Of a stretch of 64,000 bases of DNA, positions 47,914 through 52,544 are shown piece after piece. The DNA comes from an uncultured delta proteobacterium (GTDB lineage: Bacteria > Myxococcota > Myxococcia > SLRQ01). The first letter of the stretch is position 1, and each line of letters starts with the position of its first letter. Below the pieces are notes generated by a model. The model did not search any database. It had not been told where the DNA came from and was given only the letters and a program-made list of their open reading frames with translations. The stretch lies in the NCBI GenBank assembly GCA_963727485.1, contig CAVSGM010000002.1:1664001-1728000 (forward strand), read 5' to 3'. Position numbers and translations under genes: made by a program.

Positions 47914-48487
47914 TCAGGCCCGCGGTCGGGCGTGGCTGGGGTGGTGGATGGCCACGGTGCTCGCCTGGGGTCCGGCCTCGCCGGTCTCCTCCACGAAGCG
48001 CACCGGGGTCCCCACCTCCAGCCGCTCGAAGCCGCCGTCGAGGACCGCCTCCCGGTGGAAGTAGATCCACCGGCCACCTTCGGTCTCGAGGTAGCCGTGG
48101 TCCTGGCCTCGGTGGAGCTCGGCGACGACCCCCTCGGCCATGCGCACCGGCCGCTTGACCTTGTGGCGCATCACCCTCACCTGGTCCTGGAGCTGCCGCC
48201 GCGCCTCGGCGAAGGCCGCCTGGGCCGCGCTGCGCAGGGTCTCGTGACCCGCACACGCCGCCGGGTCCCGGTTCACCACCAGCTCGGCGCCAGGGACCGT
48301 GAGAATCGATGAGCACCCGGTAGTGGCGGCCGCTGCGGTGGTGGCAGTGGGGGATGTCGGCGACCACCCGCACCGCGGTGATCCGGTCGTAGAACCGCTC
48401 CAGCTTGCGGGCGGCGGCGTCGACCGCCCGCCGGTCGGCGGCGGAGGGCTCGAAGCCCCGGTAGGTGACGTCCAGCGGGATCTGCAC
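47914..48487 (-). CDS. HPF/RaiA (S30AE) ribosome-associated protein fused to a cold-shock-like domain; frameshift ~48305
   Basis: GGAGGG RBS and GTG start; QIPLDVTYR..KLERFYDRITAVRVV..HHRSG..YRV; TVPGAELVV..AFAEARRQL; GYLETEGGRWIYFHREAV..GPQASTV. Confidence 0.88.
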
Positions 48488-48509
48488 CGTGTCCCTCCGG
48501 CCGATGACG

Positions 48510-49283
48510 AACGCCTGGCGGCCGAGCGGCGCGGCACCGGGTGCAGCGTTTCCCTTTCGCAGGATCAGGCGCGAGTCCGAGCTTCGTCCCGATTGGTCGG
48601 AAGCAATGCCTCTCACGAGGTTGGTTCGACTTCGGAGCGTTGTGTGCCCACCGGCCCGGGGCGTATCGGGTTGGCCGCGGCGACCTGGCTCGCTCTCCTT
48701 TCGGGGAACGGGTTCAGCGTCTTTCCGGTGGACCGTCCGCGGTCTCCATCCGAGACCGCTTCATTCTCCCGTGTCGTAGCTCCTCCCCAGAGTGCCTGGG
48801 AGCTCGTGCCCGCCTGAAGCCTCACGGCTCCGGGCTCCACCTGCCAGGGTTTCTTCCCTCTTCGCGACCTCTCCAGAGGCGTCCACTGCCGGTGGGGATT
48901 CCCGGTCCCCACGTCTCGTTCCGCCCTCAGGCTTTCCCAACCTCTCGACGGTTTGCTCCGCGCTCCGGTTTGCGGGCCTGTTTCATCCCGCTGCCACGTG
49001 AAGGGTTTTCCCGTTCAGGGGTTTCTCCCGATTCACAGCCGTCTCCGACTCTTCGCCGGTGCGAACCTCCGTGCCGTTGGGGGACCATGGCTCGTGACCA
49101 GCACGTCCACCAACAGCTCCCTCGGCTTCGAGGTCTTGCGCCGTGAACCGATGCGTTCCTTCGGCTCGGGGTTCTCCTCCCCGTTGGTCGCTCCCCTCTT
49201 CGGGTTTGATCGCCGCCTTCGTGCAAGACGAAGGGTGGGCGCTGCTGCCTCCCGGCGTCGCTGACCGCTGACCGCCAGGCACC
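48510..49283 (-). ncRNA. Candidate large (~770 nt) structured non-coding RNA, family unassigned
   Basis: Long terminal duplex 49283-49240 / 48548-48510 with G-U pairs favouring the minus strand; GNRA hairpins; A-rich junctions; no ORF with host codon bias. Confidence 0.8.
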
Positions 49284-49286
49284 TTT

Positions 49287-49315
49287 GAACTAGTCACCGC
49301 CTCTCCGGGGAACAA
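49287..49315 (-). promoter_or_regulatory. Candidate sigma70-type promoter for the ncRNA (TTGTTC-N17-TAGTTC)
   Basis: Predicted +1 near 49280 coincides with the 5' arm of the terminal stem; weak consensus match. Confidence 0.4.
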
Positions 49316-49339: not shown

Positions 49340-49371
49340 TTCTCCACAGCTGTGGAGGAAGCTGTGGACTC
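49340..49371. promoter_or_regulatory. Palindrome with DnaA-box-like 9-mers
   Basis: CTCCACAGCTGTGGAG perfect palindrome (49342-49357); TTCTCCACA, TGTGGAGGA, TGTGGACTC versus consensus TTATCCACA. Confidence 0.4.
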
Positions 49372-49433: not shown

Positions 49434-50003
49434 ATGGCCGCCACGCCCAGGACTCGCATCCTTCTGCTCTCGGGCAACCCCAAGTCGGGCCGAACCACCG
49501 CCCTGCGCACCCTCGCCGCCGAGCTCGCCGGGCTCGGTCCCCGGGGCATGCTCACCGAGGCCCTCGAGACCGACCACGGGGATCGCCTCGGTTACCGCCT
49601 GCGCACCTTCGACGGACGGGAAGCCGTGGTCGCCCACCGGAGCTTCGACTTCGACACCACCCTCGGCCCCTACGGGGTCGACGTGGATGCCCTCGACGAC
49701 TTCGCCGACGCCGCCCTCGACCCGTCGCAGGTGGCCCCGGTGTGGCTGGTCGACGAGATCGGCAAGCTCACCAGCCTCTCCGACCGGTTCGTGGAGCGGA
49801 TGGCCGCGCTCCTCGACGGCCAGGCCCCGGTGATCGCCACCGTCGCCGCCCGGGGCTCGGGCTTCGTGGGCCAGGTGCGCCGTCGCCACGACGCCGAGCT
49901 CTGGGAGGTGACCGCCGAGAACCGCGGCGCCCTGGTCGCCCGCATCGGCGACTGGCTCGCGCCCCACCTCGGGACCCCCCAAGGCGAGGCCGCTCGGATC
50001 TGA
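49434..50003 (+). CDS. THEP1/NTPase_1-family nucleoside triphosphatase
   Basis: ILLLSGNPKSGRTT, GMLTE..RLGY, GPYGVD, LVDEIGKL, VIATV, EVTAENR. Confidence 0.85.
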   Translation: MAATPRTRILLLSGNPKSGRTTALRTLAAELAGLGPRGMLTEALETDHGDRLGYRLRTFDGREAVVAHRSFDFDTTLGPYGVDVDALDDFADAALDPSQVAPVWLVDEIGKLTSLSDRFVERMAALLDGQAPVIATVAARGSGFVGQVRRRHDAELWEVTAENRGALVARIGDWLAPHLGTPQGEAARI

Positions 50004-50004
50004 G

Positions 50005-51096
50005 ATGCGCCATCGGCAAATGGTCCCGGGGGACGGGGTCCCAGCCGCCGATCGCCACGCCCGCGCCCGCGCGGCGATGGTGGCCCTCCTCCGCGCCCGG
50101 GGCGTGGGCGACCCGGCGGTGCTCGCGGCGATGAGCGCCGTGCCCCGGCACCGCTTCGTGGACCCGGCGCAATCCGACGCCGCCTACGCCGACACCCCCC
50201 TGCCCATCGGCCACGGCCAGACCATCAGCCAGCCGGAGATGGTGGCGGTGATGCTCGAGGCCCTCGGCCTCACCGGCGACGAGCACGTCCTCGAGGTGGG
50301 CACCGGGTCGGGCTACCAGGCGGCGCTCCTGGGGCAGCTGGCGCGGGACGTGGTCACCGTGGAGATCGTCCCCGAGCTCGCCGCGCGCGCCCGGGAGGCC
50401 CTCGCCGCCACCGGCGCCGACAACGTCAGAGTCCACCTCGGCGACGGGAGCCTCGGCTGGCCCGCTGGCGCCCCCTACGACGCCATCGTGGTCGCCGCCG
50501 CCGCCCCCCGGGTGCCGGCGCCCCTGGTGGACCAGCTCGCCGACGGCGGCCGCCTGGTCCTCCCGGTGGCCCAGTCCCTCACCCGGGTCACCCGCCACGG
50601 CGACGCCGTCGACGAGGTCCGCCTCGGGGGGTGCGCCTTCGTGCCCCTGGTCGGCGCGCAGGGGTGGATCGCCGGCGGCGACGGGCCCACCTGGAGCCAC
50701 TTCGAGCACGGCGCCGACGTCGGCATCCGCGGCCGGGGCGCCACCGTCGCCGAGGCCTTCGAGGCGGCGGCCCTGGCCCTGACCGCGGTCCTGGTCCCCC
50801 CGGCGGAGGTGGTCCCCCGGGAGGAGGTGGCCTTCGCCTGCGAGGCCCCGGACCAGGACACCCTCCTCTACGACTTCCTCTCCCAGGTGGTCTACGAGAT
50901 GGCGACCCGGGGGATGGTCTTCGGTCGCTACCAGGTCGAGGTCGAGGGCCCTCGCCTCACCGCGCGGGCCTTCGGGGAGCCGGTGGACCGCCTGCGGCAC
51001 CGGCCCACCGTCGAGGTCAAGGGCCCCACCTACACCGAGCTGAGGGTCACCGAGGACGACGCCGGGGTCACCGCCCAGTGCGTCGTCGACGTCTGA
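50005..51096 (+). CDS. pcm: Protein-L-isoaspartate O-methyltransferase fused to archease
   Basis: AYADTPLPIGHGQTISQP, VLEVGTGSGYQAA, FVPLVG; then HFEHGADVGIRG, EVKGPTY, AQCVVDV archease motifs. Confidence 0.9.
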   Translation: MRHRQMVPGDGVPAADRHARARAAMVALLRARGVGDPAVLAAMSAVPRHRFVDPAQSDAAYADTPLPIGHGQTISQPEMVAVMLEALGLTGDEHVLEVGTGSGYQAALLGQLARDVVTVEIVPELAARAREALAATGADNVRVHLGDGSLGWPAGAPYDAIVVAAAAPRVPAPLVDQLADGGRLVLPVAQSLTRVTRHGDAVDEVRLGGCAFVPLVGAQGWIAGGDGPTWSHFEHGADVGIRGRGATVAEAFEAAALALTAVLVPPAEVVPREEVAFACEAPDQDTLLYDFLSQVVYEMATRGMVFGRYQVEVEGPRLTARAFGEPVDRLRHRPTVEVKGPTYTELRVTEDDAGVTAQCVVDV

Positions 51097-51112
51097 CCCG
51101 GGAGCGGGGACC

Positions 51113-52544
<1,432 letters not shown>

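Follow-up and report, generated by a model that had tools for sequence, protein, structure and literature searches.

What kind of gene lies at positions 48510 to 49283 of this 64,000-nt stretch from an uncultured delta proteobacterium (contig CAVSGM010000002.1; the whole stretch is referred to here as the window), and what might its product do? A first-pass annotation of the letters had described the interval as a large, multi-junction RNA on the minus strand, closed by a long terminal duplex and assignable to no familiar class. Our analysis supports this description. The element, 774 nt in length and running from 49283 to 48510 on the minus strand, is almost certainly an independent gene whose product is a large non-coding RNA with a stable fold, belonging to a class outside Rfam. 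Homologs show covariation and not a conserved reading frame, and contigs from RNA libraries cover the element.

A covariance-model search returned no gathering-level match in the window to any of the 4,227 families of Rfam 15; the best local E value was 1.8, and the best over seven homolog loci was 1.3. The models of GOLLD, ROOL, OLE, raiA, HEARO, MISL and the group I and II introns were presumably among those families. The annotation had set aside RNase P, tmRNA, 6S and SRP RNA, and rightly: none of their models matches the window or the homologs, the host has separate RNase P, 6S, 5S and tmRNA genes elsewhere in its genome, and the family profile does not match the host rRNA, RNase P or 6S loci.

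The first-pass annotation had remarked that the overlapping open reading frames (ORFs) lack the host codon bias. Distances between conserved anchors, taken modulo 3, are spread evenly over the three frames (15/14/12, 26/24/19 and 11/9/6), so that no conserved reading frame was found and the element is not coding. This frame test replaced a longest-ORF test, which is uninformative at the GC content of these sequences (a 200-aa frame occurs in 73 of 165 cores). The minus strand of the element is A-rich, with a GC content below that of the flanks, and folds better than its shuffled versions (z = -3.17 with 20 shuffles, none of them as good; z = -3.46 with 30). However, the plus strand folds equally well (z = -4.06 against -3.46), so folding energy gives no orientation and was dropped as a strand test. 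The minus orientation is supported instead by one-sided G-U changes in conserved pairs of the arm M3 homologs, by an internal 3x3 loop that recurs 6.6 times per RNA in the sense strand and 0.6 times in the antisense strand, and by promoter-like motifs at the equivalent position in homologs.

The structure of the window copy is a central A-rich junction from which the terminal duplex, a small hairpin, arm M2, arm M3 and a 3' domain nesting arm M4 emerge. The first arm (M1) of the longer homologs is absent. The parts are as follows.

48510 to 49283, minus strand: large structured non-coding RNA gene, the short, three-arm form of the family (fold, homolog alignments, covariation; no Rfam match)
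49240 to 49280, minus strand: 5' strand of the terminal duplex (minimum free energy (MFE) and centroid folds, duplex energy)
48513 to 48548, minus strand: 3' strand of the terminal duplex (same evidence)
49211 to 49237, minus strand: small hairpin replacing arm M1, which takes up about 160-200 nt in longer homologs (alignments, fold)
49010 to 49204, minus strand: arm M2, with a base helix carrying a 3x3 loop, a long helix and an inner junction with a second 3x3 loop
48856 to 49005, minus strand: arm M3, the best conserved arm, with a tandem G-A junction and two T-loop-like hairpins (covariation)
48972 to 48991, minus strand: T-loop-like hairpin 1 (covarying helix 3, loop tallies)
48929 to 48943, minus strand: T-loop-like hairpin 2, its loop degenerate in the window copy (covarying helix 6, loop tallies)
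48552 to 48849, minus strand: 3' domain, in which closing helix 48849-48846/48555-48552 encloses nested helix 48792-48782/48620-48610
48627 to 48776, minus strand: arm M4, architecture as in M3 (helix counts, arm-model cross-matches)

The terminal duplex (49280-49240 with 48548-48513) is present as first described, spanning about 40 bp in both the MFE and the centroid structures and with an energy of -66 kcal/mol. Of the hairpins that had been proposed, those at 48991-48972 and 48912-48892 form and covary across homologs (helices 3 and 8). Those at 48830-48817 and 48759-48739 are found in the MFE structure, and that at 48710-48691 partly so, but all three lie in variable regions. Two further proposals had to be replaced. 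The inward continuation of the duplex (CCCUUCG with CGAAAGGG) gives way to pairing of 48555-48552 with 48849-48846 (96% paired against 80% in shuffled sequences) and to a local hairpin closed by 49233-49227, while CCUC-GUGA-GAGG (48620-48609) forms no local hairpin in the family, its halves pairing with 48785-48782 and 48792-48789 (97-99% paired). Enforcing the family helices on the window copy costs only 2.6 kcal/mol relative to the free MFE.

Covariation among the homologs (165 distinct cores, mean identity 56%) is strong. Arm M3 (window 49008-48855) contains 41 pairs in 56 diverse sequences, with 93.8% of the cells paired and compensatory change in 32 of the 41 pairs. None of 500 shuffles reaches any of these measures, and sliding the partners lowers pairing to 36-45%; the shuffle test takes no account of relatedness, and helix 5 owes its invariance to the search pattern. 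Further helices exceed shuffles in 12 of 14 cases (76 sequences counted), a set in which three helices, the invariant one among them, lie in M3 and repeat the M3 test. Four helices of arm M2 are 92-98% paired against 67-86% in shuffled sequences, and its outermost helix 74% against 62%. Helix 48844-48840/48563-48559 is unsupported (0.53 against 0.53 shuffled).

The alignments reveal a common design of three or four similar arms of about 150 nt, which emerge from A-rich junctions and are closed into one molecule by the terminal duplex. Each arm starts with a helix broken by the 3x3 loop, whose pattern is YGAAG opposite CANGR and which occurs 1.9 times per RNA in shuffled sequences (77 RNAs) as against the sense figure given above. 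A covariance model of M3 finds 21 secondary matches in the same RNAs (17 loci) at E<0.05, all in sense and mostly to M1 and M4; these reach up to 35 bits, whereas the host rRNA, RNase P, 6S and tmRNA loci score at most 17.7 bits. The reciprocal M4 model agrees on the similarity of the arms; because RNAalifold gave only 8 pairs for the M4 alignment, this model is close to a sequence-only one. Profiles of the arms built from sequence only cross-match above shuffle in 11 of 12 directions, and shuffles also score. The arms share one architecture, and we infer that they descend from internal duplication.

So many copies of one loop suggest a multivalent ribonucleoprotein scaffold or sponge, in which the 3x3 loop, present about 4-10 times per RNA in either orientation, would gather or titrate one host protein in the manner of CsrB, or of OLE with its partners. 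The loop flips its orientation between lineages while keeping its sequence, and both arm number and gene copy number vary, as they do in titrating RNAs. However, the sites are internal loops within helices and the GGA of the CsrA-site consensus is not kept, which argues against CsrA-type sites. There is also no adjacent partner gene, and Ro60 and vault proteins do not co-occur with the RNA: among the 151 Myxococcota genomes considered below, none of the 12 that are RNA-positive is among the 5 TROVE or 7 vault genomes, and both were rejected as partners. We consider a sponge possible but rather unlikely. As a separate observation, all 7 sampled genomes of one myxobacterial genus, g13 (G013, G018, G027, G029, G033, G036 and G038), carry two major-vault-protein matches each.

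Arm M3 contains, within one domain, two hairpins whose loops match the T-loop sequence pattern, and the geometry of a T-loop may go with it. Loop 1 has the sequence of the host's L1-stalk loop. Conceivably, loops 1 and 2 interlock and the resulting platform stacks against the tRNA elbow, an arrangement known from RNase P, T-boxes and the L1 stalk. The RNA would then store tRNAs or ribosomal parts under rRNA-like control, and the boxA signals and stable-RNA-type promoters described below would suit such a role. An interlocking double T-loop module is defined in the available part of PMC3664808. In the present RNA, however, the loops stand about 20 bp and a junction apart, no covariation is evident between them, and loop 2 is degenerate in the window copy and in several others. 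T-loops are, moreover, general folding modules, and the window contains no tRNA gene. A tRNA- or ribosome-engaging RNA therefore appears improbable to us.

How widely is the RNA distributed? BLAST against 401 genomes of the phylum gave 15 long matches, all intergenic, in families f6 (11/17) and f14 (4/20), together with short chance matches in four other genomes. A first search for relatives had given short chance matches only, the four listed lying in coding context. The aligned BLAST homologs share motifs along their full length, and the majority have a closing terminal stem whose sequence is peculiar to the copy; in 40 of 51, the two stem strands of one copy pair better with each other than with those of other copies, the margin exceeding 10 kcal/mol in 17. 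An exact pattern taken from the best-conserved junction matched 90 stretches in species genomes and at least 121 in metagenomes. Profile searching upheld 73 of the 90 genome loci and 119 of 120 metagenome loci, and the other 17 and 1 were dropped as chance matches; about 50 of the genome loci, and none of the metagenome loci, belonged to the training set of the profile. With the M3 covariance model, 12 of 151 Myxococcota genomes are positive (the source genome of the window is one of them, and one match is weak), as are 19 of 151 Planctomycetota genomes, centre genome included; none of the f2 (0/21) or f3 (0/9) genomes is. Because only 20 candidates per genome were scored, these counts are lower bounds. 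Some families are split in carrying the RNA, such as f12 (3 of 18) and f14 (4 of 20).

The named hosts are mainly metagenome-assembled genomes of Myxococcota and Planctomycetota; one, Enhygromyxa salina SWB005, is cultured. Several hosts of L050, L054, L063, L103, L108, L112 and L116 are labelled Rickettsiales or Enterobacterales. The five with a stated genome size measure 7.5-8.7 Mb, so the labels look unreliable and we do not count a third phylum. A Stutzerimonas assembly (G410) has copies, L104 among them, on very short scaffolds; because the core of L104 is identical to that of a planctomycete copy (L052), contamination is the probable source. The length of the RNA ranges from 774 nt in the window through a typical 950-1,050 nt or so up to 1.2-2.0 kb. 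A longer subtype (L143, L159, L176, L183, L202 and others) is enlarged by sizeable insertions rich in hairpins; 11 contigs that run from its 5' motif to its 3' motif measure 1.0-2.0 kb, and no long sense ORF was seen in the contigs inspected.

The distribution is patchy, and three genomes carry 4-6 dispersed copies whose aligned cores agree at 43-100%. A tree built from 55 cores places the window copy together with those from f14, a family of another class (100/99), and BLAST gave no match to it in 4 genomes of the host's family; this fits a horizontal gain, in a tree that is unrooted. Such a pattern could also arise from a selfish or catalytic RNA, either a ribozyme or a non-autonomous mobile element that spreads by copying, possibly via a circular form. 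One contig (L194, 1-1799) is indeed a head-to-tail dimer: two non-identical units of about 899 nt, cut at the junction at both ends and without a terminal stem, for which tandem duplication, a circular RNA or an assembly effect are candidates. However, permuted order occurs in only 1 of about 80 contigs. No terminal repeats were present in the contigs checked for circularity, in which L194 alone is permuted and L162 gives one weak extra match. All loci examined are intergenic, with no gene interrupted; every copy comes with a promoter region of its own, and synteny around it is kept, though within lineages only. No reverse transcriptase or nuclease lies nearby, and no intron or ribozyme family matches. 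Phage and plasmid collections gave no match, and there is no genuine copy from either: a family member in a viral collection (L037/L283) is fused to an unrelated RNA-virus-like sequence and is probably chimeric, while a further viral-contig hit (L284) is a chance match. Taken together, we judge a selfish or catalytic element quite unlikely. The window genome itself holds a single copy, own-genome paralogs not being found. In another genome (G402), L269 and L270 are identical including their flanks on different contigs, which indicates a recent segmental or assembly duplication.

Several 5' ends of the family begin like what we take to be the group II intron 5' motif. The only candidate for domain V, the hairpin at 48830-48817, varies freely in homologs, and no intron model of Rfam matches. 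A group II intron or retroelement was likewise rejected: the unrelated ORFs on either side are uninterrupted, the two ends of the RNA pair with each other and 0 of 85 neighbouring proteins match a reverse transcriptase family.

The RNA is present in RNA libraries. Twenty metatranscriptome runs from 17 coded studies, many perhaps from one campaign, contain the stretch or part of it. Runs with a small share (X18-X20) were left out of the comparison, and the compared runs were picked because they contain the element. The covered span is:

48551 to 49271, strand not given: span under near-identical metatranscriptome contigs (97-100% identical, 4 of 4 runs compared)

The contigs stop at 49271 in three runs and at 49268 in one; three of the four stop at 49270/49271, with an adapter-like loose end in one. 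A stop about 10 nt inside the stem fits trimming of the RNA, and the likeness to rRNA processing stems that the first-pass annotation had drawn remains an unproven lead, since second-strand synthesis during library preparation can lose the same terminal bases. Long near-identical contigs do not cover the 5.3 kb of flank, a comparison that can neither rank genes nor prove silence. Among metagenome contigs, 34 of 78 end 370-545 nt past the anchor, at the 3' boundary of the RNA, a number that random placement would put at 9.2, and many contigs also start at a common 5' motif. Contig ends at the RNA boundary are what transcript-derived assemblies would give, library type aside. In the same libraries, many contigs of other family members share the anchor (48916-48961), some of them far deeper than those of the window.

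Upstream of the RNA, two kinds of candidate control element are recognised in the window.

49287 to 49315, minus strand: weak sigma70-type promoter (TTGTTC, 17 nt, TAGTTC) with a predicted start near 49280 (sequence; layout as in homologs)
49340 to 49371, strand not given: DnaA-box-like sites, an inverted pair (49340-49348 and 49351-49359) and a weaker third (motif scan)

The weak promoter at the 5' arm had been predicted before; its sigma70-like layout recurs in homologs, but a promoter scan returned 0 sites. In 22 of 58 copies a sigma54-type motif lies upstream, for the most part some 25 nt ahead of the stem, a figure given without a shuffle control. Sites matching the DnaA-box consensus are enriched upstream of 59 distinct copies (78 against 14 in shuffled sequences, with a maximum of 26 in 100) and peak immediately before the promoter. 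Near-perfect inverted DnaA-box pairs lie upstream of L266, L268, L269 and L270, while other paralogs in the same genomes are without them. A boxA-like motif is enriched in the 5' part of the RNA, where a looser pattern finds it in 42 of 131 copies, against 4 in reverse and 1.9 in shuffled sequences, and a strict pattern in 7 of 97. The pattern was loosened after the data had been seen, hence the reverse and shuffled controls. These motifs resemble those in the host's own rRNA spacers. According to the available part of PMC13753749, the antitermination complex of E. coli is loaded at boxA on rRNA and CRISPR transcripts. At the other end of the RNA, several homologs have a final hairpin that looks like a terminator.

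The genes next to the RNA in the window are the following.

47914 to 48490, minus strand: frameshifted gene for an HPF/S30AE and cold-shock-domain protein, starting 20 nt after the RNA (S30AE E=0.002, below cut-off)
49434 to 52300, plus strand: divergent NTPase_1, PCMT-archease fusion and rtcB genes, neighbours and not part of the RNA family

The close spacing and common strand of the first of these would suit a cis-regulatory leader of the hibernation-factor/cold-shock gene, similar to the raiA motif. The context largely refutes this: the downstream genes of the homologs differ and are often on the opposite strand, several homologs end in terminators of the kind just mentioned, and Rfam gives no raiA-motif match. 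A leader is accordingly very improbable. A link to the adjacent rtcB-archease or HPF genes was rejected, as these do not stand beside the homologs. Around a subset of the confirmed genome loci, from which 14 near-duplicates were omitted, the 85 closest flanking proteins belong to unrelated housekeeping families or to none, and include no reverse transcriptase, transposase or phage family. Both the HPF-CSD gene (47914-48490) and rtcB (51113-52400) appear frameshifted, which may reflect indel errors of the assembly, and the protein-L-isoaspartate methyltransferase-archease fusion (50005-51096) stands directly before rtcB and a PolX-PHP gene.

What, then, could such an RNA do? In our analysis the best mechanism, to which we give a probability of roughly 40%, is a self-packing scaffold or cage like those of ROOL and GOLLD, although the RNA is a member of neither. 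It would be transcribed as one untranslated unit under control of the stable-RNA type, comprising a sigma70- or sigma54-type promoter, upstream DnaA-box-like sites at which DnaA might bind, often an intrinsic terminator and, in a third of the copies, a boxA antitermination signal that Nus factors may recognise. The terminal duplex would protect or define the ends. The 3x3 loops, tandem G-A junctions, T-loops and unpaired A runs could then serve as docking surfaces, both from arm to arm and from copy to copy. The product might be a compact particle or cage, oligomeric and built with no dedicated protein, which acts as a scaffold or sink for other cell components as its cargo. A bolder form of the idea, in which a giant RNA grown from a duplicated unit of about 150 nt, under rRNA-type antitermination and replication-initiator-linked control, makes its own pseudo-symmetric machine or cage, is in our view about as probable.

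Several observations weigh against a self-packing cage. Covarying kissing contacts hold ROOL and GOLLD together and none is detected here, which counts against a close analogy: no pseudoknot or kissing loop is found among the top covarying pairs, in alignments that are sequence-based and weak in variable loops, and no conserved palindromic loop is seen in the loop tallies of the family. A protein partner encoded elsewhere is possible, the candidates profiled being Ro60 and vault only. The similarity of the arms is partly compositional (0-37 of 76 matches when shuffled, 3-63 for real sequences), and in the sequence-only profiles M3 against M2 is no better than shuffle. The pattern scan collects only homologs that have the anchor, whose invariance among them therefore carries no weight as evidence. 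The window copy is without a boxA, and a scan detected no terminator on its strand. The contigs, which come from RNA runs only, show presence and not strand, ends or level.

If the bolder reading is true, the element would represent a stable RNA, chromosomal and spread over more than one phylum, whose function is new for any RNA, possibly in a circular or concatemeric form. Whatever its function, the class is chromosomal, occurs in about a tenth of the sampled Myxococcota and Planctomycetota and is readily seen in sediment and marsh RNA libraries; that it has no Rfam entry is probably explained by the lack of any match in the model myxobacterial families searched. Few bacterial RNA classes are so large, and large RNAs have in many cases turned out to be catalysts or to have unexpected structures. 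A chain with repeated arms, and control of the boxA and DnaA-box-like kind, would be new to RNA design. The class is directly testable, through the 774-nt minimal natural form and through a cultured host.

In the literature searched we found no description of this RNA, most subscription papers being outside its scope, and the 224 motifs in the supplement of PMC5737381 were compared as far as Rfam contains them. That a prior description exists elsewhere seems unlikely. [quoted passage not shown] The rRNA operon resembles it in the boxA-like signal near the 5' end of a third of the copies, in the terminal duplex and in expansion at peripheral helices, and the host 23S rRNA has a similar 3x3 loop near its 3' end. 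However, there is no sequence homology to the host 16S, 23S or 5S rRNA, and the patchy distribution means that the RNA is not universal. A terminal stem mimicking helix I of 5S rRNA was dropped, as the similarity to the host 5S is only generic.

OLE and the raiA-motif RNA are likewise, so far as the sources at hand describe them, free-standing, chromosomal and structured bacterial RNAs of open function, and the window copy happens to precede an HPF/S30AE gene. The present RNA is larger than either, occurs in different phyla, matches neither model and has no conserved partner gene. Excerpts of PMC5737381 and PMC12286853 portray ROOL, too, as large, ornate and abundant, with no known protein partner and with a sequence less conserved than its structure. 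In the same excerpts it averages 581 nt, has three pseudoknots and is tied to tRNAs and prophages, whereas the present RNA gives no model match, belongs to different phyla and shows no detected pseudoknot. GOLLD, as described in parts of PMC12286853 and PMC12990946, shares a length of 800 nt and more, a many-junction fold, a conserved 3' part and a variable or lost 5' part. It resides in phages and prophages near tRNA clusters, in those accounts, while our RNA is chromosomal, has unrelated neighbours, gives no covariance-model match and shows no kissing loops. A location of the GOLLD or ROOL type was not found around the window copy, where there is no phage match, the neighbours are housekeeping genes and the window is without a tRNA gene. 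Internal arm repeats, boxA and DnaA-box-like sites are, in turn, features not seen for GOLLD in the text available. ROOL and GOLLD form RNA-only cages via A-minor and loop contacts in the available account of PMC12286853, and the present RNA may work like them. Beside them stands a new class of large bacterial RNA, which is a member of neither GOLLD nor ROOL nor any other family tested.
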